NCBI GenBank assembly: GCA_965205505.1
Contig: CBDBHB010000006.1
Coordinates: 384,001 to 448,000 of the forward strand
Length of the DNA stretch: 64,000 nucleotides
From: Acidobacteriota bacterium
GTDB taxonomy: Bacteria; Acidobacteriota; UBA890; WLXD01
Reading direction: 5' to 3'
Shown: piece after piece, positions 21,041 through 60,166 of the stretch
Numbering within the stretch: position 1 is the first letter of the stretch
Layout of the letters: each line of letters begins with the position of its first letter
Position numbers and translations under genes: made by a program
Notes under the pieces: generated by a model
Databases searched by the model: none
What the model was told of the DNA's origin: nothing
What the model saw: the letters and a program-made list of their open reading frames with translations, nothing else

Positions 21041-21901
21041 ATGAGCTTCCGCACGACGGTTATTCCGGTTGCGGGCCTCGGCACGCGCTTCCTGCCAGCC
21101 ACCAAGGCGACTCCCAAGGAAATGCTCCCGGTGTTCGATCGGCCGTTGTTGCAGTACGCCGTCGAGGAGTCGGTGGCCGCAGGCGGTAGCCGAGTCGTCT
21201 TGATTACCGCGCCCGGCAAGACCTCCGTGCTCAAGCACTTCGCTGCCGATCCGGGGCTCGAAGCCACCCTCCGTGAGCGCGGCAAGACCGCGATGCTCCA
21301 GGTCGTCCAGTCGGTTACCAGGCTCGCCCAGGTAGAGGCGGTGGAGCAACGAACGCCGCGCGGTGTCGGGCACGCCATCTTGCAGGCGCGCGAGACCGTA
21401 GGCGACGAGTACTTCGGGGTCATGTTCCCGGATGACTTTCTGCTGGCGAAGGTTCCCGTCCTCGAACAGCTCCGACGCGTTCACGCCCAACACGGAGGCG
21501 TCGTGTTGGCGGTCGAGCGGGTACCGCACGAGCACGTTGAGCGGTACGGCGTGATCAGCGGCGAACGTGTTGCCGCCAACGTCTACCGCGTCAACGACAT
21601 GGTGGAGAAGCCTTCGATCGACGAGGCGCCCACGGATCTGGCGATCGTCGGTCGGTATGTGCTTCCGCCGAAAATCTTCAGGATCCTCGGCGAGACCAGC
21701 ACCGGCGTCGGCGGCGAGGTCCAGCTAACCGATGCGCTGAGGTCCGCGCTAGGCGAGGAACCCTGTCATGCGGTGGAGTTCGAAGGGCTCCGTTACGACT
21801 GCGGTAGCCGCTTCGGGCTTCTACAGGCCACCGTCGAAGTGGCACGACGTCATCCCGAAGTGGGGGGCAGGTTTCGTCGCTACCTGAGCGAGCTCGACTG
21901 A
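21041..21901 (+). CDS. galU: UTP--glucose-1-phosphate uridylyltransferase
   Basis: AGLGTRFLPATKATPKEMLP, VEKP, GEVQLTDAL, RYDCGS. Confidence 0.93.
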   Translation: MSFRTTVIPVAGLGTRFLPATKATPKEMLPVFDRPLLQYAVEESVAAGGSRVVLITAPGKTSVLKHFAADPGLEATLRERGKTAMLQVVQSVTRLAQVEAVEQRTPRGVGHAILQARETVGDEYFGVMFPDDFLLAKVPVLEQLRRVHAQHGGVVLAVERVPHEHVERYGVISGERVAANVYRVNDMVEKPSIDEAPTDLAIVGRYVLPPKIFRILGETSTGVGGEVQLTDALRSALGEEPCHAVEFEGLRYDCGSRFGLLQATVEVARRHPEVGGRFRRYLSELD

Positions 21902-21906
21902 CGCGG

Positions 21907-21971
21907 CGCGCCTTGATCTCACCCGCAAATCCCTTCTGCGATCTGCAACGATCATCTGTTACAGGCCACTA
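21907..21971 (-). repeat. Partial (one-ended) copy of the MITE at 40495-40769
   Basis: Reverse complement matches the reconstituted MITE left end (T plus 40495-40558) at 61 of 65 nt; its TAG is the stop codon of the FmdB-family gene. Confidence 0.9.
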
Positions 21972-22298
21972 ATCGCTCTTCTTGTCGGGTTTCTTCGAAG
22001 TCTTGTCGCTCGTCGACTTGGCGGTCGTATCGGACTTGTTCTCCGACCCCTTCTGGCCCTTGCCCTTGCCCTTGCCGCTTGCGGCAGATTCCTTGCTGTC
22101 CGATTCCGGCTTCTTGCCCTTGTCGGAGTAGTCGGTGACGTACCAACCGGTGCCCTTGAACTGGATCGCCGGAGCATGCACCAGCCGATCGACACGCCCT
22201 TTGCACTCCGGACAAGTGCGCACGATGCGGTCCGAGAATTTCTGTATGCGTTCGAAGCGATGGCCGCACTTGCGGCACTCGTACTCGTAGATTGGCAT
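21969..22298 (-). CDS. FmdB-family zinc ribbon protein
   Basis: MPIYEYECRKCGHRFE...CPECKG...IQFKGTGWYVTDY plus Lys/Ser-rich tail. Confidence 0.93.
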   Translation of the reverse strand: MPIYEYECRKCGHRFERIQKFSDRIVRTCPECKGRVDRLVHAPAIQFKGTGWYVTDYSDKGKKPESDSKESAASGKGKGKGQKGSENKSDTTAKSTSDKTSKKPDKKSD

Positions 22299-22503
22299 CG
22301 GTGGTCGCGCCGAAGAGAACGGGGGGCGGTCGAGGCGTCAATATATCAACGTATGGAGAGTGGCTTGCACCGTTTTCGATAGCTGGACCGCTGCGGCCCC
22401 GTTCACATCGGCGCCAAATTGGGGGCGGGGAAGTCTGCTTCGCAGGTGAACCAGGCTCGGATCTCGGTGGTACGGCGCGCTGCCGCCGATACGCCCAGGC
22501 ACT

Positions 22504-25179
22504 TCAGGCTTTGGCGTCCATCCAGTTGGCCCCGACGCCGATTTCAACCAACAGCGGTACGTCGAGCTCGATGGCGCCCTCCATTTCCTGTTTCACCACT
22601 TCCGTTACTCGATCGACCTCCGGCTCGGGCACCTCGATCACCAGCTCGTCGTGCACCTGGATGAGCATCCCAGAGCTCAGCCCTAGCTTCGCGAGGCGGG
22701 CATGCAGATTGACCATGGCCAGCTTGATCAGGTCGGCGGCAGTTCCCTGAAGCGGTGTGTTCACGGCGATGCGCTCGCCGAAAGAGCGCACCATCGGGCG
22801 CCCGCTCTGCAGCTCGGGGAGGTGGCGTACCCGTCCCAGCAAAGTGGTTACGAACCCTTCCGCCCGGGCACGCTCGATCGTCGCCTCGAGGTAGTCGCGT
22901 ACCCTCGGGTAGGCGCTCAAGTAACGCTGGATGAAATCCTTGGCCTCCGCCAGTGAGACGTTGAACTCGCGCGCCAGGCGCTGTGGGCCCATCCCGTAGA
23001 GCACGCCGAAGTTGATTACCTTGGCCCGGTCACGTTGCTCGTAGCTAACGTCGTGAGGTTCGACGTGGAAAATCTGGGCGGCGGTGGCGCGGTGGATGTC
23101 GATGCCGTCGAGGAAGGCCTGCTGCAGCGCCGGGTCGGCCGATAGATGCGCCATGATGCGTAGCTCGATCTGCGAGTAGTCGGCCGTCATCAGCAGGCAG
23201 CCATCGGCGGGAACGAAAGCGCGGCGAATCTGGCGTCCGGTTGACTTGCGGATGGGAATGTTCTGCAGGTTCGGGTTGCTGCTCGACAGGCGTCCGGTCG
23301 CAGCCACCGCCTGATCGAAGGAACCGTGAACGCGGCCGGTATCGGGCAGCACATAGCCCGGCAATGCATCGACGTACGTGCTCTTGAGTTTCGAAAACTC
23401 GCGATACTCCAAAATCTGGCTGACGATCGGGTGGTCGGCGGCCAGCGCTTCGAGTATCTCGGCCTTGGTGGAGCGACTGCCCTTCGCGGTTTTGCCGCCG
23501 GCGGGTAGCCCGAGCCGGTCGAACAGTACCTCCGCGAGCTGCTTCGGCGAGTTGAGGTTGAACGGCTCTCCGGCGATTTCGTGGATCTCCGCTTGTAGGG
23601 TCTCGATGCGTTCCGCGAACTGGGAGGACATCTCCGCCAGGTAGCCGGTATCGATGCGTATGCCGCGCAGCTCCATTGCCGCCAGCACTTGCATCAAAGG
23701 CATCTCGAGGTCGGCGAGCAGCGCCGCCAAGCCCGGTTGTGCCTCGAGCTCCGTGTCGAAAGCGATTGCCAATCGCAGGGTCAGGTCGGCGCGCTCGGCC
23801 GCGTAGCGCGTCGCCTCGGCTATCGGGATAGCGTCGAATGTGGCCTTGCGGTCGGGAAGTATTTCCTTGAGCTCGGTCATGCGAACGTGGAGTAGATCGC
23901 TCGCCAGCGCCGACAGGCCGTGGCTCTGACGTGTCGGATGCAGCACGTATGAAGCCAACATGATGTCGAGCTGCGGCTCCACCCCGACGACATGGTGACG
24001 CGCCAGCGTGATCAGATCGCGCTTGAGGTCGTAGCCAACGAGGTCGACGTCGCCGTCGCCGAGCAATGGGGACAGCATGCGAAGACACTCGTCGGTGCGC
24101 ATCGCGTTCGTAACTCCGAGGCCCTGATGAGCGAGCGGTACATATACCCCGCTACCGACCTCCCAGCTCAGCCCCACACCGACGATCTGGGCGCGCATCG
24201 GTTGCCCGGCATCTACCTCCAGCTTGATGGCCACACGTCCCGCCTCACGGATCGTCATGATGACCGTCTCAAGCTCGGCAGCGTTAGCAACGGTGCGGTA
24301 ATCGCCCTCTGCTCGCTCGGGCTCCAGGACGTAGTCGTCTAGCAGCCGACGGAACTCCAGCTCCATGAAGATCTCGCGGCATGTGGCGACGTCGGGTTCT
24401 CCGACTTGCATCGCTTCGAGGGATAGCTCGATCGGAAGATCAGTGTGGATGGTGGCGAGCTGCTTCGACAGGTGGGCCTGCGCGGCGTACTCGGCCAGGT
24501 TGCGACCATACTTGTACTTCGCCAGGTCGGCCGCGTGGTCGACTGCGTTCTCCAGCGAGCCATAGGCCTGCAACAACTCGCGAGCCCGCTTCGGGCCGAT
24601 CCCCGAGACACCCGGAATGTCGTCGACACTGTCACCCATCAGCCCGAGCAGATCGGTCATGAGTCGAGGAGGCACACCGTACTTGTTCTCCACCTCCTCG
24701 GGGCCGTAGACGTAGCGCTGGTTGCGCTCTGTCAGCAGCTTGACCTCGTTGCTGACGAGCTGCAGCAGGTCCTTGTCTTCGGAGACGATGACGGTGTGTA
24801 TCCCGGCCTCCTCGGCGCGGGCGGCGAGCGTGCCGATCACGTCGTCGGCCTCGTAGCGCGGCAGCTCGAAGATGGGGATGCCCATCGCTTCGACGATGCG
24901 CCGGATCCAGGGAATCTGCTTCCGTAGGTCATCGGGTGTTTCGGGCCGACTGGACTTGTAGCCCGCGTACTCTTCGTGGCGCACGGTGGGTCCAGGCGGA
25001 TCGAACACGACGCCGCAGTAGTCGGGCTTCTCCTCGTTGATCAGCTTTCGCAGCATGGTGACGAAGCCCAGCGTGGCGTTGGTGGGAACGCCGCGCGAGT
25101 TGGTGAGCTCCGGCAACGCGTGGTAGGCGCGATGGATCTGATTGAGGGCGTCGATCAGACAGAGTTTCTTGGGAGGCAT
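22504..25179 (-). CDS. polA: DNA polymerase I
   Basis: 5'-3' exonuclease (YEADDVIGTLA, GDSVDDIPGVSGIG); polymerase motifs DYSQIELR, AKVINFGVLYG, QVHDEL; start MPPKKLCLID. Confidence 0.97.
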   Translation of the reverse strand: MPPKKLCLIDALNQIHRAYHALPELTNSRGVPTNATLGFVTMLRKLINEEKPDYCGVVFDPPGPTVRHEEYAGYKSSRPETPDDLRKQIPWIRRIVEAMGIPIFELPRYEADDVIGTLAARAEEAGIHTVIVSEDKDLLQLVSNEVKLLTERNQRYVYGPEEVENKYGVPPRLMTDLLGLMGDSVDDIPGVSGIGPKRARELLQAYGSLENAVDHAADLAKYKYGRNLAEYAAQAHLSKQLATIHTDLPIELSLEAMQVGEPDVATCREIFMELEFRRLLDDYVLEPERAEGDYRTVANAAELETVIMTIREAGRVAIKLEVDAGQPMRAQIVGVGLSWEVGSGVYVPLAHQGLGVTNAMRTDECLRMLSPLLGDGDVDLVGYDLKRDLITLARHHVVGVEPQLDIMLASYVLHPTRQSHGLSALASDLLHVRMTELKEILPDRKATFDAIPIAEATRYAAERADLTLRLAIAFDTELEAQPGLAALLADLEMPLMQVLAAMELRGIRIDTGYLAEMSSQFAERIETLQAEIHEIAGEPFNLNSPKQLAEVLFDRLGLPAGGKTAKGSRSTKAEILEALAADHPIVSQILEYREFSKLKSTYVDALPGYVLPDTGRVHGSFDQAVAATGRLSSSNPNLQNIPIRKSTGRQIRRAFVPADGCLLMTADYSQIELRIMAHLSADPALQQAFLDGIDIHRATAAQIFHVEPHDVSYEQRDRAKVINFGVLYGMGPQRLAREFNVSLAEAKDFIQRYLSAYPRVRDYLEATIERARAEGFVTTLLGRVRHLPELQSGRPMVRSFGERIAVNTPLQGTAADLIKLAMVNLHARLAKLGLSSGMLIQVHDELVIEVPEPEVDRVTEVVKQEMEGAIELDVPLLVEIGVGANWMDAKA

Positions 25180-47752: not shown

Positions 47753-49177
47753 TTGACCTCGAACCGCCGACCTGAGGCTGCTGCTTCCGCAGTTGCTGGC
47801 CGATGTACCGTACTGCTCGTTGGTATCGCGATCGGCGCCTGTACCGGCGGAGCCACGCTTCCGATCACCGTAGGCGACCTGGCGATTACGCACGTCACCG
47901 TCCTGCCCATGGACGGCACCGAACGGCTCGTCGACCAGACGGTGGTGGTCGCTGGGGAGCGCATCGTTGCCGTGGAGGCGACTGGAACGGTAGGGCTCGC
48001 TCCGGACACAACCGTGGTCGATGCAGCGGGCAAGTACCTGATGCCCGGCATGGTCGAGATGCACGGGCACTATCCACAGGACGCCGAGGGACAGTTCACG
48101 CGCGACATCCTGTTTCTCTACGTTGCCAACGGCGTCACGTTGGTCCGCGGCATGCAGGGCGGTCCGCAGCACTTGCCGCTACGGGAGTCATTGGCCCGCG
48201 GCGAGCTCGTCGGCCCCCGAATCCTCGTCAGCGCGCCGATGTTGCACGGCCAGAACGTGACCGAGCCCGACCAGGCGATTGAGCTGGTGCGACGTGCCAG
48301 TGCCGCCGGATTCGACCATCTCAAGGTGCACGAGGATCTCAGCCGCGAGGTCTACGACGCCATTGCGGACACCGCCAACGAAATCGGTATCACCTTCTCG
48401 GGGCACGTGACCAACCACGTGGGTCTGTATCACGCCCTCGCGAAGGGTCAACTGACGATCGACCACCTCGACAACTACCTCGAAGCGCTCGTCGACGACC
48501 AGCAAGCGGTGGCTGATCTGGGTCTCTTCGATCTCGGGCAGCTGGCTGGCCGCATCGACGACACCAAGATAGCTGACGCTGTGACGGCGACGGCCGAGGC
48601 CGGCGCGGGTGTGGTGCCCACCATGGCGCTCTGGGAGGTGCTCTTCGGTGCTCGCCGCGGCGAGGAGTGGTTGGAGATGCGCCCCGAGACTCGTTACATG
48701 CCGCCCCAGATGGTCGACAGTTGGATCCAGGGAACCAATCAGCGTGTCGAGCAGCTGGGCGCAGATCGCGAGGCCGTATCGAACATCCTGGCGCTACGCC
48801 GCCGGGTGTTGAAGGCGCTCCACGATGCGGGCGTACCGGTGCTGCTGGGTACCGATTCACCGCAGATCTTCAGCGTGCCCGGGTTCTCGATCCACCACGA
48901 GATGGCGCTGATGGTGGAATCTGGGTTGACGCCCTACGACGTGCTGTTTGCGGGTACGCAGGCGGTAGCGCAATTCTATGGCGATACTGACGACTACGGC
49001 TCAGTGGCGGTCGGCCGCCGTGCCGACCTGGTGTTGCTGAACGCCGATCCGGCCGACGACGTGAGCAACTTCGCCAATCGGTCCGGGGTAGTGGTCAACG
49101 GCCGGTGGATCAGCGAAGAAGAGATTCAGGAGGAGCTCGAGACGATCGCGGCTCGTGCGGTCGAGACAAACCAGTGA
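47753..49177 (+). CDS. Amidohydrolase-family protein
   Basis: PGMVEMHGH, LLGTDS, GSVAVGRRADLVLL. Confidence 0.9.
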   Translation: MTSNRRPEAAASAVAGRCTVLLVGIAIGACTGGATLPITVGDLAITHVTVLPMDGTERLVDQTVVVAGERIVAVEATGTVGLAPDTTVVDAAGKYLMPGMVEMHGHYPQDAEGQFTRDILFLYVANGVTLVRGMQGGPQHLPLRESLARGELVGPRILVSAPMLHGQNVTEPDQAIELVRRASAAGFDHLKVHEDLSREVYDAIADTANEIGITFSGHVTNHVGLYHALAKGQLTIDHLDNYLEALVDDQQAVADLGLFDLGQLAGRIDDTKIADAVTATAEAGAGVVPTMALWEVLFGARRGEEWLEMRPETRYMPPQMVDSWIQGTNQRVEQLGADREAVSNILALRRRVLKALHDAGVPVLLGTDSPQIFSVPGFSIHHEMALMVESGLTPYDVLFAGTQAVAQFYGDTDDYGSVAVGRRADLVLLNADPADDVSNFANRSGVVVNGRWISEEEIQEELETIAARAVETNQ

Positions 49178-49197: not shown

Positions 49198-51645
49198 CTA
49201 ATCGGTACGCAACGCCACCAGGGGATCGATGCGCGTTGCCCTCAGCGCCGGGACGAAGCTCGCCGCCGCGGCGGTCGCCCCCAAGACCAGCACCGCGATG
49301 CCGTAGGCAGCGAAATCGGTGGCGCTGACGCCATACAGCACCGTGGTTGCGGCGCGCGACAACAGGAGTCCGCCGGCCACGCCAAGCACGAGACCGACGA
49401 GCGTCAACCGAGCGCCATGGATCATCACTGCTCGAGTCACGTCAACGGCCCGGGCTCCGACCGCCATGCGGATTCCGATCTTGCGGAAACCCTGTGCCAC
49501 CGCAAAGGAGATCACACCGTAGAGCCCGACCGCCGCCAGCAGCAACGCCAGGCCGGCGAACGCCGCAACTACGCCGGCGGCGAGCCGCGCTGGCAAGAAC
49601 GCCAGCCCCAGGCTGCCGTGCCCGGTGTTCAGATCGGATACCGGCATCGTCGGATCCCGGCGTTGGATGGTTCGGCGTACGGTTTCGAGGGCGGCAGCGG
49701 GGTCGCCAGCGGTGCGCACGTGGACAAAGGTCAGCCCGCCACGGTACTGCTGGGCTCGAGCGCCATAGAAGTAAGGCTTTGGATCCTCGCCGAGGCTGAA
49801 GTACTTGCCGGTCGGCACGACGCCGATAATCTGCCGCTCCTCGCCGCCACTACGGATCCGCTTGCCGACCGCGGTGTCGCCGGGCCAGAAGCGGTCGGCG
49901 AACGCCTGGTTGATGATCGCCACGGGCGCCGCATCGAGGCCGTCGTCCGCGGCGAATGACCGCCCGCGCAAGATCGGGATTCCCATAGCGACGAAGTAGC
50001 CGTGATCGACCTCGTTGTAGTCGAGGCTGGGCCAGTCCTGCCCTTCCGGAATCTCGTATCCCTCGGGCAGCACGCCGCGCGTTCGCGACATCAGCGACAG
50101 CGGCGTCGACTGCGAATAGCCCACCGCTTCGATTCCGGGCTGTACCAGCAGGTCGGCGCGCAGCTCGTCGAAGAAGGTGCTGAGCTCCTTCACCGGGTAA
50201 CCCTGCAGCGCCGGGTCGACGCTGGCGTGAACCAGGCCCTCCGGGTTGAAGCCCAGATCAAGACGCTGCACTTGCTGCAGACTTCGCAGCACCATCCCGG
50301 CGGCAATCAGCAGCACCAGGCACACGGCCACCTGGCCGACGACGAGAGCCTCGCGCAGGCGCGTCGAGCGCCCTCCAGAGCCGGGCGCACCGTCCTTCAG
50401 CGCGACGACCAGATCCTGGCGGGTGGAGGCGATCGCGGGCGCCAGCCCGAAAACCAGCCCGGTGGCCGCCGTGACCAGGAACGTGAACGCCAGCACGGTG
50501 GCGTCCATCCCGACGTCGATCCGCAGCGGCACCCCGGTTGGCGGCTGGAATGACTTCAGCAGGCCGATCAGCGCCAAGCCGAGGAGCACGCCGAGCACTC
50601 CGCCGAGCGCCGACAACACGGCGCTCTCGGTCAGCAGCTGGCGGCTTAAGCGTCCTCTGCCGGCGCCCAACGCCAGACGGATACCCACCTCGCGCGTCCG
50701 GGCGGTCGACCGCGCCACCAGCAGGCCGGCGACGTTGGCGCAGGCCAGGAGCAACACGAAGCCGACGACGCCCGACAACAACGACAGCATGGCGACAAAG
50801 CCGCCGCGAACCGCAGGGTGCAGCGCCGCCTTACTCTCCGGATAGAAATCGACCGTGATGGCGGTATTGGTATCCGGGTAGAGATCTTCCAGATGCACGT
50901 ACAAGGCGTCGAGTGCCGATTTGGCCTGCTGCATCGTGACACCAGGCCTCAACCGGCCGGTGGCTGACTGGATCCAATGGTTACCGCGACGCTCGAGGTT
51001 GGAACCCGAAGGAGTTAGCGCAGGCTCCATGCTGAACGGGATCCAAAGCTCGGTTCGAATGGCGGTGTTGTTGCCTTCATAATCGGCGGGCGCCACCCCG
51101 ATCACGGTGATCTCCTGTCCGTTCAGCAACATACTGCGCCCCAGAGCTCCGGGATCGGCGCCGAAGACGTCGCTCCAGAACCGATGGCTGAGGACGGCCA
51201 CCGGATGGGTCCCCTCGGTCTGATCTTCTTCGGGGAGGAAGCCGCGCCCGAGCTGCGGTTCTACACCCAGCATGTCGAAGTAGTTTCCAGTGACATAGGT
51301 GCCGAAGATTCGGCGGCTCTCGCCGCCGGCGCTGAAGCTGAAGATACCGACGGTGTCGGCCAAGACCTGCTGGAACACGTCGTCGGTGGCCGCGCGCATG
51401 TCCACCAGGTCGGGGTATGACCAGGAGCCGAACTGCAGTCCGTTGTTGTAGTTGAGGTACATGCGCACGAGGCTCTCGGGCTCACGGATCGGCGCCGTCT
51501 GGTAAAGAAACGCCCGCACGAAGCTGAACGCGGCCGAGTTGGCTCCGATGCCGAGCGCCAGGCACGCTACCGCCGCCACGGTGAACCCGGGACTGTTGAT
51601 CAGCTGTCGGGCCCCGAACCTCAGATCTCGTGCGAAATCACCCAC
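49198..51645 (-). CDS. ADOP-type duplicated MacB/FtsX ABC permease
   Basis: DLRFGARQLINSPGF, LALGIGAN, LLLACANVA, REVGIRLALGA, RIDPLVALR. Confidence 0.92.
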   Translation of the reverse strand: MGDFARDLRFGARQLINSPGFTVAAVACLALGIGANSAAFSFVRAFLYQTAPIREPESLVRMYLNYNNGLQFGSWSYPDLVDMRAATDDVFQQVLADTVGIFSFSAGGESRRIFGTYVTGNYFDMLGVEPQLGRGFLPEEDQTEGTHPVAVLSHRFWSDVFGADPGALGRSMLLNGQEITVIGVAPADYEGNNTAIRTELWIPFSMEPALTPSGSNLERRGNHWIQSATGRLRPGVTMQQAKSALDALYVHLEDLYPDTNTAITVDFYPESKAALHPAVRGGFVAMLSLLSGVVGFVLLLACANVAGLLVARSTARTREVGIRLALGAGRGRLSRQLLTESAVLSALGGVLGVLLGLALIGLLKSFQPPTGVPLRIDVGMDATVLAFTFLVTAATGLVFGLAPAIASTRQDLVVALKDGAPGSGGRSTRLREALVVGQVAVCLVLLIAAGMVLRSLQQVQRLDLGFNPEGLVHASVDPALQGYPVKELSTFFDELRADLLVQPGIEAVGYSQSTPLSLMSRTRGVLPEGYEIPEGQDWPSLDYNEVDHGYFVAMGIPILRGRSFAADDGLDAAPVAIINQAFADRFWPGDTAVGKRIRSGGEERQIIGVVPTGKYFSLGEDPKPYFYGARAQQYRGGLTFVHVRTAGDPAAALETVRRTIQRRDPTMPVSDLNTGHGSLGLAFLPARLAAGVVAAFAGLALLLAAVGLYGVISFAVAQGFRKIGIRMAVGARAVDVTRAVMIHGARLTLVGLVLGVAGGLLLSRAATTVLYGVSATDFAAYGIAVLVLGATAAAASFVPALRATRIDPLVALRTD

Positions 51646-51798: not shown

Positions 51799-52857
51799 GT
51801 GACGAACGTCGTCGAAACTGACTCGCAGCGCCGGACCCGCAAGCTTGCTGGCTTGCTCCAGATGGGCTTCGAGTGCGTCGAGGGACCGCTCACCACCGAG
51901 GCTGAGATGCTTGCCGATGGTTGGCGGGTCTCGCAGTCAGTGCCGGCGATGGGAACCGTGGTCTCAGTGTCTGCGTTTCATGAGTCGCGCCTGCTGTCGG
52001 AGGAAGCGATTGGACGTGGGCTGGCGGAGATGGACCGGCTCATAGCGATCCTCAATCGGCACGAGCCGACCTCTGCGATGGGGGTGCTCAACGACACCGG
52101 AGCGCTGCGATCGGCCCCCGATGAGCTCGTCTACCTGCTACGACGAGCTCGTGGGTTCGAGCTGCTCAGCGCCGGTGCCTTCGACATCGCCGTGGCGCCA
52201 GTAGTTGACCTGCTGCGCCAGCGGCGTGAGTCCGGCGACGGCCGCCCGCTGAGTAATGGCGAGCTCGGCGAAGCGCTGGCCCGGGTGGAAGCGGGCCGCG
52301 TCGATGTCGATGGGCGAGGCGTTCGATTTCGTGGAGAGCGCACCACCGTGACGCTCGACGGTATGGCGAAGGGGTTCATCGTCGACCGCATGGCGCACGC
52401 GCTGGAAGCGTGTGGCGCCGACGGCTACCTGATCAACGCGGGCGGCGATATCCGCACGGCCGGAACTCGCGATGGACGGGCGCCCTGGAGCGTGACAGTA
52501 CAGGACCCCGACAAAGGAGGCGAGTACCCTGACGTGCTGCGGTTGCACGACGGCGCCGTCGCCACTTCGGGGAGTTACGAGATCTATTTCGATCGCCAGC
52601 GCACGCTGCACCACATCATCGACCCGACCGGCGGATGGCCGGTACACACCAGCAGCGTGACCGTGCGTGCGGCCACCGCCATGACTGCAGACGCCCTGGC
52701 GACAGCAGTTTTCGTGGCCGGGCCGGAGAAAGGCATGCCGCTGGTCGCTTCGATCCCCGGGGCTGCCTGCCTGATCGTTGCCGCTAACGGCTCTATCCTC
52801 AAATCCGCCGGATGGACGAACCGGCCCGAGATCGCCGCACCCCCTGGAGACCGATGA
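51799..52857 (+). CDS. apbE: FAD:protein FMN transferase
   Basis: AMGT, GAFDIAVAP, LDGMAKGFIVD, NAGGDI, VATSGSYE, HHIIDP, ADALATA; no evident signal peptide. Confidence 0.92.
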   Translation: MTNVVETDSQRRTRKLAGLLQMGFECVEGPLTTEAEMLADGWRVSQSVPAMGTVVSVSAFHESRLLSEEAIGRGLAEMDRLIAILNRHEPTSAMGVLNDTGALRSAPDELVYLLRRARGFELLSAGAFDIAVAPVVDLLRQRRESGDGRPLSNGELGEALARVEAGRVDVDGRGVRFRGERTTVTLDGMAKGFIVDRMAHALEACGADGYLINAGGDIRTAGTRDGRAPWSVTVQDPDKGGEYPDVLRLHDGAVATSGSYEIYFDRQRTLHHIIDPTGGWPVHTSSVTVRAATAMTADALATAVFVAGPEKGMPLVASIPGAACLIVAANGSILKSAGWTNRPEIAAPPGDR

Positions 52858-53345
52858 CCCATTCGACATCGCAGTACCGGAGTGGACAGAGGCTGGCGCT
52901 GGTGGCCCTGCGGATGCTGGTTGGCTGGCACTTGCTGTACGAGGGCATCGCCAAGCTGCAGAATTCTTACTGGACTTCGGCCGGGTTCGTTTCCGAGGCG
53001 CAGGGGCCGTTTGCGGGGTGGTTCCTGTGGTTGGTGTCGGAACCGGGGCGCCTACAGCTGGTCGACCTGCTCAACAAGTGGGGCTTGACGCTCATCGGCC
53101 TGGCCCTGGTCGTCGGTCTGGGGTCACGCACGGCGTCGTTGCTGGGCATGGTCCTGCTAGGACTCTACTACGTCGCCAACCCGCCCCTGCCCGGACTGGA
53201 CACGGCGATTCCCGCCGAGGGGTCGTACATGATCGTCAACAAGACCTTGATCGAGATTGCGGCGCTGTTGGTCATCAGGGCCTTCCCTACCGATGACGTG
53301 GTGGGCCTCGGTCGACTTCTGCGACGCGAGAGGGAATCGGCATGA
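52854..53345 (+). CDS. DoxX-family membrane protein
   Basis: LRMLVGWHLLYEGIAK...EGSYMIVNKTLIE; ATGA overlap with apbE. Confidence 0.88.
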   Translation: MTHSTSQYRSGQRLALVALRMLVGWHLLYEGIAKLQNSYWTSAGFVSEAQGPFAGWFLWLVSEPGRLQLVDLLNKWGLTLIGLALVVGLGSRTASLLGMVLLGLYYVANPPLPGLDTAIPAEGSYMIVNKTLIEIAALLVIRAFPTDDVVGLGRLLRRERESA

Positions 53346-54958
53346 GCATGGACGACAACGAGCAGACGATCCACGACGCCGGCAACGCGCCCGACAAGAG
53401 CAGAGTTCACGGCAAGGCGCTCGACCGCCGCGACCTCTTCAAGGGGCTGGCATCGCTGCCGGTTCTCGGGACGCTCGGATGGGGGGCGTGGCGTAAGAAA
53501 ACGCTTGCTGACGAGCGCCGAAACCAGGTGCTGGCCGAGCTCGGGGTGAGCGGTGATGCGCCAGCGATCATCGACCACGCACAAAGCCGGCCACCTGCCG
53601 ATCGCATCAACCTCGGGATTATCGGCTTCGGCGGCCGGGGCGAGACGCTGATGCGCGGCGCGGGGTTCGCTCACCCTGAAGTTACCGAGGAGTGGCGGCA
53701 GGCCGCGGCCGAGGATCCGCGTAACACTCGACTCTCCGAGTTCATGCTGCAGGGCGATCTGAACGTGGCGTTTACCGCCGTCTGCGACGTGTTCGACGTG
53801 CGCGCCGAACGTGCTATCGCAGCGTCAGCTAACGAGACGCGCCCGGGCGGTGACTCGGGCTCCCGGCCCGCCTACCGGTTCCGCCACTACGAGGAGCTGC
53901 TCAATTCCCCCGATGTCGACGCCGTGCTGATCGGCACCCCCGATCACTGGCATGCGCCGATGACAATCGCCGCCGCCGCTGCCGGCAAGCACGTCTACTG
54001 CGAGAAGGCGATGACGCGCACCGAGGAAGAGGTCCTGCCGATGGTGGAGGCAGTCAAGGCCTCGGGCATCAAGTTCCAGCTCGGTCACCAGAATCGTCAG
54101 CTCGAGAGCCACGAAAAGGCGCGCGAGATCATCGAGAAGGAGATCCTCGGCAAGGTGACGCTGGTGGAAACAACCACCAACCGTAATGATCCCTGGGGCG
54201 CTTGGGTATGGGACATTCATCCCGAAGGCAACCCCGACACCATCGATTGGGAGCAGTTCCAGGGCAACGCCGCCAAGCAAGTGCCTTTCAACCTCGAGCG
54301 GTTCTTTCGATGGCGCTGCTGGTACGACTACGGCACCGGGTTGGCGGGCGATTTGCTGTCGCATGAGTACGATGCCCTCAACCAGATCATGAACCTGGGA
54401 ATCCCGAAGTCTGCGGTCGCCTCGGGCGGCGTTTACTTCTTCAAGGATGGCCGCGATGTGCCCGATACCTTCCAGGTGGTCTACGAGTATCCGGAGCGCG
54501 ACCTTACCGTCGTGTACAGCGCCACGCTGGCGAGCGGACGCGGACGCGGCAAGGTGTTCATGGGTCACGACGCCGCGATGGAAGTCGGCAGCGGCGTGCG
54601 GGTGATCGCCGACGCGCAGTCGACACGCTATGCGGATCTGATCGAGCGCGACGTTGTTGATGTCGATCGGGCTCTGCTTACGTATCGACCAGGCTTCAAG
54701 GGGCTCGACGCCGTGACCACCGCCACCGAGGAGTACTTCGCCAGTCGCGGATTGTTATTCACCTACCAAGGCGGCCGACGCGTCAGCACGCATTGGCTGC
54801 ATATCAAGGACTGGCTCGATACGGTGCGCCATGGCGGCGAGCCGAGCTGCAACATCGATCGCGGCTTCGAGGAAGCGATGACCTGTCATATGGCCACGAA
54901 GTCCTACCAGCTCGCCCGCAGGGTCGAGTGGGACCCGGTCCAGCAGAAGATCGTGTAG
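53342..54958 (+). CDS. Gfo/Idh/MocA oxidoreductase with twin-Arg-like N-terminus
   Basis: RRDLFK, IGFGGRG, TPDHWH, HVYCEK, GDLLSHEYD; ATGA overlap with doxX. Confidence 0.92.
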   Translation: MSMDDNEQTIHDAGNAPDKSRVHGKALDRRDLFKGLASLPVLGTLGWGAWRKKTLADERRNQVLAELGVSGDAPAIIDHAQSRPPADRINLGIIGFGGRGETLMRGAGFAHPEVTEEWRQAAAEDPRNTRLSEFMLQGDLNVAFTAVCDVFDVRAERAIAASANETRPGGDSGSRPAYRFRHYEELLNSPDVDAVLIGTPDHWHAPMTIAAAAAGKHVYCEKAMTRTEEEVLPMVEAVKASGIKFQLGHQNRQLESHEKAREIIEKEILGKVTLVETTTNRNDPWGAWVWDIHPEGNPDTIDWEQFQGNAAKQVPFNLERFFRWRCWYDYGTGLAGDLLSHEYDALNQIMNLGIPKSAVASGGVYFFKDGRDVPDTFQVVYEYPERDLTVVYSATLASGRGRGKVFMGHDAAMEVGSGVRVIADAQSTRYADLIERDVVDVDRALLTYRPGFKGLDAVTTATEEYFASRGLLFTYQGGRRVSTHWLHIKDWLDTVRHGGEPSCNIDRGFEEAMTCHMATKSYQLARRVEWDPVQQKIV

Positions 54959-55029
54959 CGTTCGCCGGTTCGAGGGCGACGAGGAACATCGGCTCGTCGA
55001 TAGACATCCGCCAGGGGCACGTGACACGC

Positions 55030-56235
55030 ATGCACGGCAAGTTCCAGCTCGGCTTGATGATGTTCCTGCAGTACGCCATCTGGGGCGCGTGGGCCCCGGT
55101 GTTGTCTGCGTATCTGCTCGCGGACCTGAGCTTCGAGGGCACGCAAGTCGGGTTCGTCTATTCACTCTTGCCGATGGCCACGATCATCGCTCCGTTCGTC
55201 GGCGGGCAGATCGCTGATCGCTACTTCGCCTCCGAGCACACCATCGCCTTTCTGCAGCTGTCGGGCGGCGGGGTGCTGCTATACGCGGCGACGCTGACCG
55301 ACTACCGGTCGCTGGTATTGGTGATGTTCGTGTATTGCCTGTTGTATGCGCCGACGTTGGCGCTTACCAATTCGATCGCCATGAGCAACCTCGACAACTC
55401 CGAAGAGGGGTTCGGTCGGATCCGGGTCTGGGGAACGATCGGTTGGATAGCAGCGGGGTGGATGCTCTCGGCCTGGCGCGCCGGCACCGGCGGAATGGTG
55501 GTGGCCAGCGACATGTTCCTACTCGCCGGCGGCTTCTCCATCGTCATGGGGTTGCAGTCGTTTCTGTTGCCGCATACGCCGCCGCGGCGTGACAGCCGCA
55601 CGCCCTGGCCGTTTCTGGAAGCGCTGCGCATGCTCCGAGATCGCGAGTTCGCCATCTTCATGTTGATCTCGTTCGTCGTTGCCACCGAGCTGCAGTTCTA
55701 CTATGTGCTTACTGCGCCATTTCTTCAGTCGTCGGCTATCGGCATTTCACCGGCGCGCGTGCCGGCCGTCATGACGGTCGCTCAGATCGCCGAGATCTTC
55801 GTGCTGGTGGTGATGCTGTCGTGGTTTCTCAAGCGTTACGGAATGCACTCTACGCTGGCGCTGGGCGTCATCGCGTGGCCGGTGCGCTACGTGATCTTCG
55901 CCATTGGCACTCCATGGTGGCTGGTGGTGGCGTCGTTGACCCTGCACGGTTTCTGCTACGTTTTCTTTTTCGTGGCGGCGTTCATCTACGTTGACTCGGT
56001 GGCGCCGACGAGCATCCGGGCCTCGGCCCAGAGTCTCATCGCCATCGTCACCTTGGGGGTCGGCAGCTTCGTCGGCAGCAACTTTGCCGGCTACGTGCAA
56101 AGCTGGTTCACCGTTGACGGGGCGACCGATTGGTTCAACGTGTTTCTCGTACCCTGCGCCGTGACGGTGTTGTGCGCCGTAGCGTATCTCTTGTTCTTCA
56201 AGGACCAACGCGCGGCGCAGCCGGTTGCCGTTTGA
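55030..56235 (+). CDS. MFS nucleoside/sugar:H+ symporter (NupG-like)
   Basis: MFLQYAIWGAW, IADRYF, IRVWGTIGWI, LHGFCY. Confidence 0.88.
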   Translation: MHGKFQLGLMMFLQYAIWGAWAPVLSAYLLADLSFEGTQVGFVYSLLPMATIIAPFVGGQIADRYFASEHTIAFLQLSGGGVLLYAATLTDYRSLVLVMFVYCLLYAPTLALTNSIAMSNLDNSEEGFGRIRVWGTIGWIAAGWMLSAWRAGTGGMVVASDMFLLAGGFSIVMGLQSFLLPHTPPRRDSRTPWPFLEALRMLRDREFAIFMLISFVVATELQFYYVLTAPFLQSSAIGISPARVPAVMTVAQIAEIFVLVVMLSWFLKRYGMHSTLALGVIAWPVRYVIFAIGTPWWLVVASLTLHGFCYVFFFVAAFIYVDSVAPTSIRASAQSLIAIVTLGVGSFVGSNFAGYVQSWFTVDGATDWFNVFLVPCAVTVLCAVAYLLFFKDQRAAQPVAV

Positions 56236-56256: not shown

Positions 56257-57507
56257 ATGACTCAACGACGACTCGGTGTAGGGATTATCGGTGGCGGCTT
56301 CGTCGGCCGCTTCCACATCCGTTCCTTCATCGGCGTCCGCGACGCCGATGTCCTCGGCGTGGTCAGTCGAAGCGGTGAGACCGCGGAGGAAGCGGCCGCC
56401 CTAGCGCGCCAGCTTCGCGTCGGCGAGGCGCGGCCGTTCGCTTCGATTGCCGAGTTGGTTGCCGATCCTGGTATCGATGCGGTGTGGATCTGCTCGCCCA
56501 ACTTCACCCGTATCGAAGTCATGGAGGAGATCGTCGACGCGGTGAAATCGGGCAAGGGCAAGTTGCTAGGTGTAGCGTGCGAAAAACCGCTGGGGCGCAA
56601 TACCGCCGAGGCGATGCGCATGGTCGAGCTGGTGCAGGAGGCCGAGCTGCTCGACGGCTATCTGGAGAACCAGTTGTTTACGCCGAGCGTGGTACGCGGC
56701 AAGCAGATCGTCTGGGAGCGCGGCGCTGCCCTCACGGGACCACCCTACCTGGCACGGGCGGCGGAAGAGCACGCTGGCCCGCACATGCCCTGGTTCTGGT
56801 CGGGTGAGTTGCAAGGGGGCGGGGTGCTCAACGACATGATGTGCCACTCCGTGGAGACAGCGCGCTTTCTGCTGACGCCGCCCGAGGCGCCCCGCGATGC
56901 GCTGACGCCGGTTCGCGTGACCGCCTACACCAACTGCTTGAAGTGGCAGCAGCCGCACTACGCCGAGCAGCTGGCACGAGCGAGCGGAGGACAGAACGAC
57001 TACCAGACCCGCCCGTCCGAGGATTTCGCGCGTTCGCTCGTCGAGTATCGCGACCCGGACGGCAACCCGCGCATCGTCGAGACCACCACATCGTGGTGCT
57101 TCGTCGGCGCTGGGCTGCGGCTCACGATGGAGCTGCTCGGCCCCGAATACTCGATGTCAGTGAACTCACTCGACATGGGCCCCAAGCTGTTCTTCTCGAG
57201 GCAAGTGGTCGGGACGGCAGGCGAGGACCTGGTAGAGAAGCAAAACGCGGAAGTTGGCCAGATGCCGGTGGTGGCCGACGAAGAAAGCGAGTATGGCTAC
57301 GTCGGTGAGAATCGGCACATGGTGCGGTGCTTTCTCGACGGCCGACGGCCGGACGAGACGTTCGACGATGGTCTCAACGTCACGGAGTTGCTGATGACCG
57401 CTTATATGAGTGCCGAGCGTGGCGCTGCCATCGAGTTTCCGCCGCCGGACCTGGCAGGCTTCGTGCCGGCCGTGGCGCGCGGCGAATGGAACCCCAAGAG
57501 CGAATAG
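56257..57507 (+). CDS. Gfo/Idh/MocA oxidoreductase
   Basis: IGGGFVG, CEKPL, GGGVLNDMMCH. Confidence 0.92.
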   Translation: MTQRRLGVGIIGGGFVGRFHIRSFIGVRDADVLGVVSRSGETAEEAAALARQLRVGEARPFASIAELVADPGIDAVWICSPNFTRIEVMEEIVDAVKSGKGKLLGVACEKPLGRNTAEAMRMVELVQEAELLDGYLENQLFTPSVVRGKQIVWERGAALTGPPYLARAAEEHAGPHMPWFWSGELQGGGVLNDMMCHSVETARFLLTPPEAPRDALTPVRVTAYTNCLKWQQPHYAEQLARASGGQNDYQTRPSEDFARSLVEYRDPDGNPRIVETTTSWCFVGAGLRLTMELLGPEYSMSVNSLDMGPKLFFSRQVVGTAGEDLVEKQNAEVGQMPVVADEESEYGYVGENRHMVRCFLDGRRPDETFDDGLNVTELLMTAYMSAERGAAIEFPPPDLAGFVPAVARGEWNPKSE

Positions 57508-57533: not shown

Positions 57534-58265
57534 ATGACCCATGATGTGAGACGACTACCACTACCTGCCATCGTGTTCAGCGTCGGCGCTGCAGCTGCCA
57601 TCGCTGTCGGCGCCGTACGCTCGCTGCCCGCTGGCGGTGAAGCCAGTGCGATTCCGCCGGTGGAGGAGACGATGTCGGTGAGCTCAGATGGTTTCGAGGA
57701 CCTGATCCAGCGGAACGACAACGGCGTCTTTCACAAGGGCGGTTGGAACCACTACGGACCGGGCTACTTCGTGCTCGATGGGGAAACCGGCGTGTTCGAG
57801 TCGCACGGCGGCATGGGGCTCATGTGGTACAGCGCCCGCGAGTACTCCGACTTTGCGCTCGAGCTCGATTTCAAAACCAGCAAGCTGGAAACGAATTCCG
57901 GGGTGTTTATTCGCGTTCCCGGTGTTCCGAGTAGCGACGATTACATCTATCACTCGTTCGAGATCCAGATCTACGATGCGACCGAGGAGGGGATCCACCG
58001 GACCGGCGCAGTCTACGACGCGGAACCGGCGACGCACTTGGCCTCTCGCCCGACGGGCGACTGGAACCACATGCGTGTGACCTTCGTAGGTGATCACATC
58101 GCCGTCGAGATCAATGGCGAGATGGTGGTCGATTGGGATGCGGAGCCACGCGGGAAGATTGCCGACTTCGCCGCCTCCGGCTATGTGGGGTTGCAGAACC
58201 ACGACCGCGACAGCTCGGTCTGGTTCCGCAACATCCGGGCCAAGGACTTGACCGCCGCGCCGTGA
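57534..58265 (+). CDS. DUF1080 (3-keto-glycoside hydrolase family) protein
   Basis: NSGVFIR, FEIQIYD, TGAVYD, WNHMRV, GYVGLQNH, WFRNI. Confidence 0.9.
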   Translation: MTHDVRRLPLPAIVFSVGAAAAIAVGAVRSLPAGGEASAIPPVEETMSVSSDGFEDLIQRNDNGVFHKGGWNHYGPGYFVLDGETGVFESHGGMGLMWYSAREYSDFALELDFKTSKLETNSGVFIRVPGVPSSDDYIYHSFEIQIYDATEEGIHRTGAVYDAEPATHLASRPTGDWNHMRVTFVGDHIAVEINGEMVVDWDAEPRGKIADFAASGYVGLQNHDRDSSVWFRNIRAKDLTAAP

Positions 58266-58632: not shown

Positions 58633-59556
58633 TCAGGACATCTCGCTGGCAAGCTCGTTGCGGACTCGCTCCAGCAGTGCCTTGGTGGCGCGAATCCCAT
58701 CGGGCTCCGACAAGCGCTCGCCCTCGTACTCAATGCCCACCCGGCCGCGATACCCGGCGTTGCCAACGATGCGCAGCAGGCGGTCATAGTCGAGCCGGAC
58801 CTCGTTGCCGTCGGGTCCGAAATCGTACGACTTGGCGCTCACGGCGCGCGCCATGGGCATCAGCTCCTCGACACCGAGGTAAAAGTCATACCAGTCATCA
58901 TCGGCGATTCGGAAGTTGCCGAAGTCCGGCAGGGTCCCGAGCCCCGGATGGTCGCCGCGACGGATCGTCTCGGCCAGCCACTTGCCATTGCTCGATAGGC
59001 CGCCGTGATTCTCGACCAGCACGCTCAAGCCATGGTCCGAGGCGAACTCCGCCAGGCGACGCAACCCATCTGCGGCCAGCCGGCTCTGCTCCTCCCAGGT
59101 GCCCTCCGACGCTGCGTTCACGCGGATGCTGTGACAGCCAAGGAAGGCGGCAGCCTCGACCCACTTGTGATGGTTCTCGATTGCCTGAGTACGTACTGCG
59201 GCGTCCGGATCTCCGAGGCGTCCCTCGCGGTCGCACATGATTAGCAGGCTGCGAACGCCCTCACCGTCGCAACGCGCCTGCATCTCCTGCAGGTAGGCTG
59301 CGTCGCGTGCCCGTTCGAAGAAGAAGACGTTGACGTACTCGACCGCGTCAATGCCGAACGTGGTGCGGGCTCCATTGATGAAGTCGAGATGGTCGAGCTC
59401 ACCCGCGAGCAGAGCCCGGTGCTGCGACCACTCCGCCAACGAGATGCTGAACCACGAGTCGCTCGCGCGGCCGTGCGCAGAAATGGCAGGAAGCGCCGCG
59501 ACCGCCCCCAGTGCTGCTGACTGCCCCAGGAATCGCCGGCGTGTCGTGGGCTTCAT
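58633..59556 (-). CDS. Tat-exported sugar phosphate isomerase/epimerase (xylose isomerase-like TIM barrel)
   Basis: RRRFLG signal, ISLAEWS, VENHGGLSS, LPDFGNF, GIEYEG. Confidence 0.9.
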   Translation of the reverse strand: MKPTTRRRFLGQSAALGAVAALPAISAHGRASDSWFSISLAEWSQHRALLAGELDHLDFINGARTTFGIDAVEYVNVFFFERARDAAYLQEMQARCDGEGVRSLLIMCDREGRLGDPDAAVRTQAIENHHKWVEAAAFLGCHSIRVNAASEGTWEEQSRLAADGLRRLAEFASDHGLSVLVENHGGLSSNGKWLAETIRRGDHPGLGTLPDFGNFRIADDDWYDFYLGVEELMPMARAVSAKSYDFGPDGNEVRLDYDRLLRIVGNAGYRGRVGIEYEGERLSEPDGIRATKALLERVRNELASEMS

Positions 59557-59578
59557 GATCGAGCCTTCTCCGAGAGGC

Positions 59579-60166
59579 TCAGTCGCCGAGTCGGCTGTCG
59601 AGCCGCAACCAATGCGACGGTACGCCCAGGCGGCGCGCCTCCGCTCGCAGGGCACTTTCCAGGGCACGCCAGGCTCCTAGCTCCCGGCGATTCGCTGTCA
59701 GGCGGGCGGAGCCGTATCCGCTGCCTGCTCCGGGGCGGCTGCGTGTACGCTGCTGCCCAGCTTCCAGGCTCGAGATCTGCTCGCGCAGCCAAGCCATCTT
59801 CTCCTTCCAGTAAGCGCGGTCAGCCGGATCGAGATAGAAGCTCTCGGGCTGAGGCGCAGACGAGGCGATCGGGCTTCGTCGCTCGTGAACGCGCGTCGCG
59901 GGTCGCCGCGCCGGATTGCCATCAGCGGGTCGGGCGTTGATCGTGCGGGGCACAGACCCCGGAGAGCGACCGTCGTCGCGCCGGATCTGGCGCACGAGGT
60001 CGGCCGACATCGCCACCTCGACGCCGTAGGCTCGAAAAACCACCTTGCCGTTCTCGATGCGCGCATCCTCGACCTGCAGGACACGGCCGTTCGCAAGCCA
60101 GACCGTGTCGGCGGCGGCCGGTACGGTCACACTGGCGACGACCAGAACGAGGAGGAAGGTTCGCAT
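59579..60166 (-). CDS. Secreted hypothetical protein
   Basis: Signal peptide then ADTVWLANGRVL; C-terminal EARRLGVPSHWLR. Confidence 0.7.
   Translation of the reverse strand: MRTFLLVLVVASVTVPAAADTVWLANGRVLQVEDARIENGKVVFRAYGVEVAMSADLVRQIRRDDGRSPGSVPRTINARPADGNPARRPATRVHERRSPIASSAPQPESFYLDPADRAYWKEKMAWLREQISSLEAGQQRTRSRPGAGSGYGSARLTANRRELGAWRALESALRAEARRLGVPSHWLRLDSRLGD

Follow-up and report, generated by a model that had tools for sequence, protein, structure and literature searches.

We analysed a 64,000-nucleotide stretch (the window) of an Acidobacteriota bacterium genome (GTDB lineage UBA890; WLXD01; GenBank assembly GCA_965205505.1, contig CBDBHB010000006.1, positions 384,001 to 448,000 of the forward strand), which contains a three-gene operon for a putative flavin-modified sugar dehydrogenase and its membrane partner. 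The operon consists, on the forward strand, of apbE (51799..52857), encoding an ApbE-family flavin adenine dinucleotide (FAD):protein flavin mononucleotide (FMN) transferase in a form without a signal peptide (PF02424, E-value 3e-66); doxX (52854..53345), encoding a small membrane protein of the DoxX family (163 residues; PF07681, 22 bits); and the gene for Gfo1 (53342..54958), a Gfo/Idh/MocA dehydrogenase of 538 residues that resembles glycoside 3-dehydrogenases (PF01408 and PF22725). The stop and start codons overlap as ATGA at both the apbE/doxX and the doxX/Gfo1 junctions, as an earlier reading of the DNA made without database searches (the sequence-only reading) had described. That reading proposed that Gfo1 receives FMN as a covalent modification and delivers electrons to quinone by way of DoxX. 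The computational tests that we ran are consistent with it and support it as a proposal in which flavinylation of Gfo1 and electron flow to quinone would be the central steps.

The Rossmann domain of Gfo1 (PF01408, E-value 8e-14) has the glycine-rich loop GIIGFGGRG, in which G95 and G97 are invariant. Hallmarks of the Gfo/Idh/MocA family are a catalytic E-K-P-type motif and a D-x-x-x-H motif in the C-terminal domain; in Gfo1 the first reads EKA (with E221 and K222) and the second comprises D337 and H341, and these four residues do not vary among 60 sequences and align with the blocks of 8tdf. A homologue search with Gfo1 scored more than 6000 sequences, the top 120 of which share 62-100% identity with it. 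The best solved relatives are 8tdf and 8tdh, which represent the Alistipes glucoside-3-dehydrogenase AL3 (E-value 5e-32), followed by DgpA and levoglucosan dehydrogenase; the sequence alignment to solved relatives is limited to about residues 128-355, and the match to AL3 spans residues 167-355. The AlphaFold2 model of Gfo1 (predicted local distance difference test score, pLDDT, 82.7) has the ordinary two-domain fold of the family and matches 4gqa, 6a3i, 8tdf and 1ofg in Foldseek with probability 1.00. These solved relatives, together with the DUF1080, TIM-barrel and Gfo2 neighbours described below, suggest that Gfo1 probably oxidises glycosides at C3.

The N-terminus of Gfo1 carries the twin-arginine motif RRDLFK (residues 29-34), already noticed in the sequence-only reading, and a weakly hydrophobic anchor (residues 35-50), which together span 53426..53491 on the forward strand. 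The twin-arginine DRRDLFKGLASLPVLG is followed by a weak, moderately hydrophobic stretch with no evident cleavage site, and an AxA site is absent. R29 and R30 are invariant in 60/60 sequences, and the model has helices at residues 29-37 and 40-67, the latter a long stalk helix. We therefore read this N-terminus as a predicted uncleaved signal-anchor of the twin-arginine translocation (Tat) pathway, by which Gfo1 would be exported. Alternatively, the twin-arginine segment could serve as an anchor only, so that the catalytic domain stays in the cytoplasm, is flavinylated there by the signal-less ApbE and passes electrons from imported sugar to DoxX. The missing signal peptide of the cluster ApbE would fit this arrangement, as would the weak hydrophobic stretch behind the twin arginine and the lack of an evident cleavage site. 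However, the twin arginine is invariant, the TIM-barrel and DUF1080 enzymes that would act together with Gfo1 have export signals, and the linked ApbEs of Aminicenantes-type and Neomarinimicrobiota loci, being lipoproteins, act outside the cytoplasm. Furthermore, a four-helix DoxX plus the extra twin-arginine helix in the DoxX-Gfo1 fusions described below places the catalytic domain outside. A cytoplasmic catalytic domain thus appears very improbable to us.

A clade-specific insert of Gfo1 (approximately residues 444-482; 54671..54787, forward strand) contains the candidate ApbE flavinylation site DAVTTAT (residues 456-462; 54707..54727, forward strand), in which T462 is the proposed FMN acceptor. 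The codons GAC GCC GTG ACC ACC GCC ACC confirm the motif at the place given in the sequence-only reading. Conservation of the motif had been set beforehand as one of the points on which that reading depended, and we found it, in an S/T form, in all 120 close homologues and in 60/60 sequences across phyla, Bacteroidota, Neomarinimicrobiota, Latescibacterota, Sumerlaeota and Aminicenantes included, with Thr or Ser as the acceptor throughout. Among the 120 homologues, D456 is conserved in 119 and T459 in all; the fifth position (460) is Ser in 69, Thr in 51 and Gly in none, the sixth (461) is Ala in 103 and Pro in 17, and the acceptor (462) is Thr in 118 and Ser in 2. Among the 20-residue segments of Gfo1, residues 456-475 rank third in conservation (0.86 vs a mean of 0.74). 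The pLDDT of the model is below 50 at residues 453-471, which is compatible with a flexible loop and shows neither burial nor exposure.

The relaxed motif D..[ST][GST]A[ST] occurs with a frequency of 0.0106 per 538 residues in the six-frame open reading frames (ORFs) of at least 200 residues of the source genome, so that, leaving conservation aside, the probability of a chance match in a given neighbour would be about 1%. The motif is absent from the other six cluster proteins. The nearest paralogue, encoded by the gene next to Gfo1 in a Sumerlaeota locus (L060:2666-4174), is missing the stalk helix and also about 26 residues that include the motif; its Tat signal is ordinary, and it comes without a DoxX of its own. 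The AL3-like paralogues adjoining Gfo1 in Bacteroidota loci likewise have ordinary Tat signals and no motif.

The strict form of the motif gave 23 matches in the six-frame ORFs of the source genome. One of them, DDATGATAAYF, was considered as a Gfo1 paralogue and rejected, since it belongs to an adenosine-deaminase-like (PF00962) predicted lipoprotein (L098:7440-9053, reverse strand; G000 contig C8, about 21440-23053). In this protein D-D-A-T-G-A-T stands right behind the lipobox cysteine and is followed by AAYF, comparable to DAVTTATEEYF in Gfo1. The protein could be a client of the second, lipoprotein-type ApbE of the genome, or the match could be due to chance.

The ApbE encoded in the operon is full length, covering positions 1-265 of the 266 of the PF02424 profile. 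It aligns with the solved FMN transferases 1vrm, 4xdt, 4ifu and 6nxi and retains the conserved FAD- and metal-site blocks AKG[FY], AGGD[IV]R, TSG.YE, HHI[IL]DP and DAL[AS]TA. Its lack of an evident signal peptide, pointed out in the sequence-only reading, was confirmed: no hydrophobic N-terminus was found, and the maximum Kyte-Doolittle hydropathy over 15 residues (KD(15)) is 0.75, compared with 2.2-2.9 for ApbEs with signal peptides. The ApbEs encoded on the same strand in related clusters, where the N-terminus is available, do not exceed a KD(15) of 1.46, and none has a hydrophobic signal; they share the N-extension '..RKL.AL..MGFE.V' with the operon ApbE. The four linked ApbEs in other arrangements (L037, L028, L063 and L075) are lipoproteins, and most ApbEs encoded elsewhere in the genomes of those loci have lipoprotein or signal peptides (KD 2.2-2.9). 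The contrast between signal-less ApbEs on the same strand and lipoproteins in the other arrangements points to independent recruitment of two ApbE types. The source genome (5.98 Mb, 96% complete) has two ApbE genes and no FMN_bind gene anywhere in its 5.98 Mb; the sequence-only reading had already remarked that no FMN_bind gene lies nearby. The second ApbE (L083:9028-10149, forward strand; G000 C9:1573207-1574070) has a lipoprotein-like N-terminus and is encoded directly after nuoC, nuoD, nuoE-F, nuoG, nuoH and nuoI, with no obvious client.

Linkage of apbE to Gfo1 was examined in 80 genome loci with Gfo1, 58 of which were evaluable for apbE, while 74 had enough upstream sequence to be judged for DoxX. 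An apbE gene is found somewhere in the locus in 40 of the 58, in three different arrangements. It lies directly upstream on the same strand in 36/58 loci overall, with 6/6 in Acidobacteriota, 29/30 in Gemmatimonadota and 1/3 in unlabelled loci; in four more it is divergent (L037, L028 and L063) or downstream on the other strand (L075). The conserved apbE linkage expected by the sequence-only reading is therefore borne out in Acidobacteriota and Gemmatimonadota but does not extend to all loci, as discussed below. Aminicenantes-type and Neomarinimicrobiota loci show the linkage again, with a different gene order and ApbE type. Genomes G003 (L075) and G010 (L037) have no ApbE besides that of the cluster, and no FMN_bind domain was found in genome G003. 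All ten tested genomes that lack a same-strand adjacent apbE have an ApbE elsewhere.

Co-occurrence was also assessed in a phylum sample of 401 genomes, with Gfo1 in 27 and ApbE in 252. ApbE is present in 27/27 Gfo1-positive and in 225/374 Gfo1-negative genomes, a comparison that is only indicative because related genomes are not independent; the tallies include G059, G162 and G034, which are flagged as unpublished and are all ApbE-positive and Gfo1-negative. Among the three Gfo1-less members of two Gfo1-rich families (f1 and f2), G163 and G215 also have no ApbE, and G104 has one. The absence of both genes in G163 (91% complete) and G215 (75%) could reflect joint loss or incomplete assembly.

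In Aminicenantes-type loci a gene for a Tat-signal NusG_II protein (PF07009) adjoins DoxX-Gfo1 (L037, 6194-6964, reverse strand; L023, L028, L063 and L056). It lies between DoxX and the lipoprotein apbE in L037, L028 and L063, and its frame overlaps apbE in L037. No flavinylation-like motif was found in the NusG_II proteins of these loci.

The association with DoxX has a wider reach. A scripted distance rule places DoxX directly upstream of Gfo1 in 71 of the 74 evaluable loci, and the remaining three (L032, L035 and L044) are fusions or overlapping frames, so that DoxX is adjacent or fused in 74/74. Five DoxX-Gfo1 fusion proteins occur among the homologues, with DoxX at the N-terminus and the twin-arginine segment kept internally. 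The window DoxX is 41-58% identical to the DoxX domains of fused relatives that score 34-36 bits, and one fused relative reaches DoxD at 22.8 bits. DoxX/D-family proteins are described as four-helix proteins in the passages of PMC10084136 on the family; a crude hydropathy scan gave four segments in the homologous part of P0123 and only two above threshold in the window DoxX. A tblastn search of the source genome returned no second DoxX of the operon type, no second Gfo1 and no member of the DoxX-fusion family described next. By reference to DoxDA and BtdLS, treated in PMC10084136, we infer that DoxX may interact with quinone. A complex prediction for Gfo1 (residues 25-538) and DoxX with nicotinamide adenine dinucleotide (NAD) and FMN had a median score of 0.27 against a mark of 0.32, which is evidence neither way.

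A search for longer DoxX relatives revealed a second DoxX family of 115 proteins of 480-560 residues (P0123-P0241). These consist of DoxX, an internal twin-arginine anchor, a short linker with a flavinylation-type site and a 300-residue domain, for which a Pfam search gave no match. The aligned linker site reads [DNH]-A-[VI]-[TS]-x-[A/P]-[TS] in the 115 proteins; its fifth position is Ser in 61, Gly in 50, Ala in 2, Thr in 1 and Arg in 1, the sixth is Ala in 104, Pro in 9 and Ser in 2, and the seventh is Thr in 95 and Ser in 20. Because Gly and Ser forms alternate at one aligned site, the Ser form appears to be a naturally occurring version of the ApbE motif. In metagenome loci (L104-L145; seven truncated ORFs were excluded) the site is present in 28/28 DoxX-fused members, 24 by pattern and 4 as near variants, compared with 3 of 45 complete unfused relatives, which have plain Tat signals. 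The L107 member has DGLTTAT, with apbE adjacent.

Variation of the motif is also apparent in FMN_bind domains of the RnfG/NqrC type from Bacteroidota (G002 and G009; L099-L103), which read DAITAST, DAISAAT, DAISGGT (twice) and DGISGAT; the strict motif is broken in four of the five. Motif searches requiring S/T-G-A-S/T would overlook DAITAST, DAISAAT and DAISGGT. Section 8 of the review PMC12052999 gives about 50% flavinylation left after G-to-A and A-to-V substitutions in the motif.

These findings raise the possibility that DoxX is a general membrane module, which would move electrons from a tethered FMN 'swinging arm' of exported enzymes to quinone and which has at least two unrelated catalytic domains as partners, the Gfo/Idh/MocA dehydrogenase and the 300-residue domain without a Pfam match. 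For Acidobacteriota and Gemmatimonadota, attachment of the FMN would take place in the cytoplasm through the dedicated signal-less ApbE, before passage through the Tat pore. We put this generalisation forward tentatively, as plausible and somewhat short of an even chance.

Several observations weigh against a flavinylated Gfo1. The strict D-x-x-[ST]-G-A-[ST] motif is not matched, since the fifth residue is never Gly (0/120 and 0/60), and Pro is the sixth residue in 17/120 homologues. Conservation of the loop is not decisive by itself because Gfo1 is conserved throughout, and the modelled motif loop, with its low pLDDT, gives no distance to the nicotinamide or to DoxX. We know of no flavin site in the Gfo/Idh/MocA fold. 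The window DoxX scores 22.0 bits with PF07681, below the cut-off of 23.6. No apbE gene belongs to the locus in 18 of the 58 evaluable cases, the ten Bacteroidota loci (0/10) among them; the presence of ApbE in Bacteroidota genomes says little because it is needed there anyway for FMN_bind proteins. For the second DoxX family, only 3/80 metagenome loci have apbE at a distance of up to 4 kb and the other 77 lack it, so adjacency is not general there.

A serious alternative is therefore that the conserved loop is structural, binds substrate or docks to DoxX, and is never flavinylated. Electrons would then move from bound NADH straight to quinone at the interface with DoxX, or DoxX would be a mere anchor, and ApbE would serve another client or flavin handling. 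The missing Gly, the loci without apbE and the lack of a known flavin pocket in the fold all speak for this alternative, as does the co-transcription of the Aminicenantes-type ApbE with the Tat-signal NusG_II protein rather than with Gfo1. However, the motif occurs in neither the other cluster proteins nor the NusG_II proteins, and both the source genome and G003 are without an FMN_bind client. Furthermore, the motif goes together with DoxX in each of two unrelated enzyme families, it alternates with the canonical Gly form in the second of them, and the Thr/Ser acceptor is never lost. On this evidence we consider a never-flavinylated loop unlikely, though it is the objection that we take most seriously.

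The genes downstream of the operon bear on the substrate. Gfo1 is followed on the forward strand by a major facilitator superfamily (MFS) transporter resembling nucleoside:H+ symporters (55024..56235; PF03825, E-value 4.5e-103), by Gfo2, a second Gfo/Idh/MocA oxidoreductase without a signal peptide and hence assigned to the cytoplasm (56257..57507; PF01408), and by a DUF1080/3-keto-disaccharide hydrolase (57534..58265; PF06439, E-value 1.7e-34) with an N-terminal hydrophobic signal or anchor (residues 10-28). A xylose-isomerase-like TIM barrel with a Tat signal, RRRFLGQSAALGAVAALPA, is encoded on the reverse strand (58633..59667; PF01261), and an internal MKPTT is its likely start. In related loci, the MFS gene lies downstream of Gfo1 in most Acidobacteriota and Gemmatimonadota, Gfo2 and DUF1080 genes are conserved cluster members, and the TIM-barrel gene is often directly 5' of apbE. 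Upstream of the operon are an amidohydrolase gene (47753-49177, forward strand) and a gene for an 815-residue MacB/FtsX-type permease (49198-51645, reverse strand), both of which look ordinary and unrelated.

The enzyme types of the cluster match those of the 3-keto-glycoside pathway AL1-AL4/BT2156-2159, with the MFS transporter in addition. This likeness raises another alternative, in which Gfo1 is redox-neutral like AL3 and BT2158, its NAD being recycled by reduction of a 3-keto sugar, and DoxX tethers or regulates the enzyme, as BtdS sequesters a regulator. AL3 and its kin are the closest solved relatives of Gfo1, the cluster has the same four enzyme types as AL1-AL4, and a regulatory role of BtdS, a DoxX/D-family protein, is described in the relevant passages of PMC10084136. 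However, a redox-neutral Gfo1 leaves the linked ApbE, the clade-specific insert and the DoxX fusions unexplained, and the AL3-like paralogues beside Gfo1 in Bacteroidota, with their ordinary Tat signals, have neither the insert nor a DoxX fusion. We regard a redox-neutral Gfo1 as improbable.

Taken together, we lean with modest confidence towards a Tat-exported, glycoside 3-dehydrogenase-like Gfo1 to which FMN is covalently bound and from which electrons reach quinone by way of DoxX. Gfo1 would be a sugar dehydrogenase, probably acting at C3 of glycosides, with tightly bound NAD. The signal-less ApbE of the operon would attach FMN through a phosphoester to T462 in the putatively flexible loop D-A-V-T-[ST]-A-T prior to export; in lineages with a lipoprotein ApbE, attachment to Gfo1 would take place after export. 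Folded Gfo1 would leave through Tat, and its uncleaved twin-arginine anchor would tether it outside the cytoplasmic membrane beside the four-helix DoxX. Upon sugar oxidation, the tethered FMN would accept the hydride of the bound NADH and the electrons would pass to DoxX and the quinone pool, so that catalysis by Gfo1 would not need a second sugar as substrate. Cleavage of the 3-keto-glycoside would fall to the exported TIM-barrel and DUF1080 enzymes, import of the product to the MFS transporter, and its reduction to the cytoplasmic Gfo2. The module thus points to an undescribed route by which electrons from extracytoplasmic sugar oxidation enter the respiratory chain.

Among known systems, Gfo1 is closest to the exported enzymes AL3 (8tdf, 8tdh) and BT2158, with which it shares the Gfo/Idh/MocA fold, a twin-arginine N-terminus, the expectation of a bound NAD, and a neighbourhood with DUF1080, a xylose-isomerase-like TIM barrel and a second, cytoplasmic Gfo enzyme. 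The passages on cofactor binding in the reports on these enzymes describe enzymes with tightly bound NAD that stall in the reduced form after one turnover in vitro (10.1101/2024.03.25.586180; PMC8121099). For re-oxidation in vivo, PMC8121099 proposes a second sugar and 10.1101/2024.03.25.586180 the 3-keto product. Unlike AL3 and BT2158, Gfo1 has an uncleaved anchor with a stalk helix, the motif insert, an obligatory DoxX and a linked ApbE. Term searches of the AL3 and BT2158 papers found no mention of these Gfo1-specific features, and 'quinone' occurs 0 times in the AL3 preprint. Transfer from tethered FMN through DoxX to quinone, if true, would be a direct respiratory answer to the stalled re-oxidation of NAD. 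The Zymomonas mobilis glucose-fructose oxidoreductase is likewise a Tat-exported Gfo enzyme, with bound NADP (as cited in PMC8121099), but its cofactor is recycled with a second sugar.

With regard to flavinylation, the Gfo1 module appears to belong with the ApbE-flavinylated extracytosolic redox proteins, a known class. Known ApbE clients include the FMN_bind domains of NqrC, RnfG, NosR and PplA, NqrB/RnfD, DUF2271, DUF3570, Flavodoxin_4 and FMN_red variants, and in two studies (PMC8238504; 10.1101/2024.03.13.584918) client candidates were likewise drawn from apbE neighbourhoods. Gfo1 resembles these clients in its short D-x-x-[ST]-x-A-[ST] site, the putatively flexible segment around it, its predicted place as an extracytosolic redox protein and its clustered apbE. 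It differs from them in being an NAD-dependent Rossmann dehydrogenase rather than a flavoprotein or small FMN domain, and in having Ser or Thr at the fifth position. 'Gfo' and 'DoxX' have 0 occurrences in the main texts of PMC8238504 and 10.1101/2024.03.13.584918, the supplements of which may list such neighbours, and our literature search found no paper with both DoxX and ApbE. According to its account of the search, the 2021 survey dropped ApbEs without signal peptides (PMC8238504), and it would miss the cluster of the operon for that reason. If the proposal is true, Gfo1 would represent a new class of ApbE client, with a variant motif (Ser or Thr at the fifth position) overlooked by surveys that demand S/T-G-A-S/T.

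In Klebsiella pneumoniae, the client of a cytoplasmic ApbE is a soluble fumarate reductase, as summarised in section 6 of PMC12052999. The operon ApbE is similar in having no signal peptide and would similarly act in the cell, but the K. pneumoniae client has an FMN_bind domain and remains cytoplasmic, whereas Gfo1, the proposed client here, would later be exported by Tat. To our knowledge, and with no search aimed at it, there is no precedent for a client that is flavinylated and then exported by Tat. If the general reading of the DoxX module is true, it would give the first dehydrogenase with NAD plus covalent FMN and the first phosphoester-flavinylated Tat cargo.

DoxX/D proteins are presented in the relevant passages of PMC10084136 as the small subunits of DoxDA (thiosulfate:quinone oxidoreductase) and BtdLS (hydroxyhydroquinone dehydrogenase). 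The DoxX of the operon would resemble DoxD and BtdS as a four-helix small membrane subunit of a quinone-linked dehydrogenase; it differs in its association with ApbE, since those passages report neither flavinylation nor ApbE for DoxDA and BtdLS (PMC10084136). The proposed electron transfer would give a concrete role to the poorly understood DoxX family. The same proposal, if true, would imply energy-conserving periplasmic glycoside oxidation in Acidobacteriota, Gemmatimonadota, Bacteroidota and other phyla abundant in soil and sediment. In this respect LacABC and ThuAB are counterparts, FAD-type glucoside 3-dehydrogenases whose periplasmic oxidation of glycosides at C3 feeds electrons into the respiratory chain, and which are referred to as cytochrome c-dependent dehydrogenases in PMC8121099. 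In the Gfo1 module, the same end would be reached with NAD, a tethered FMN and DoxX.

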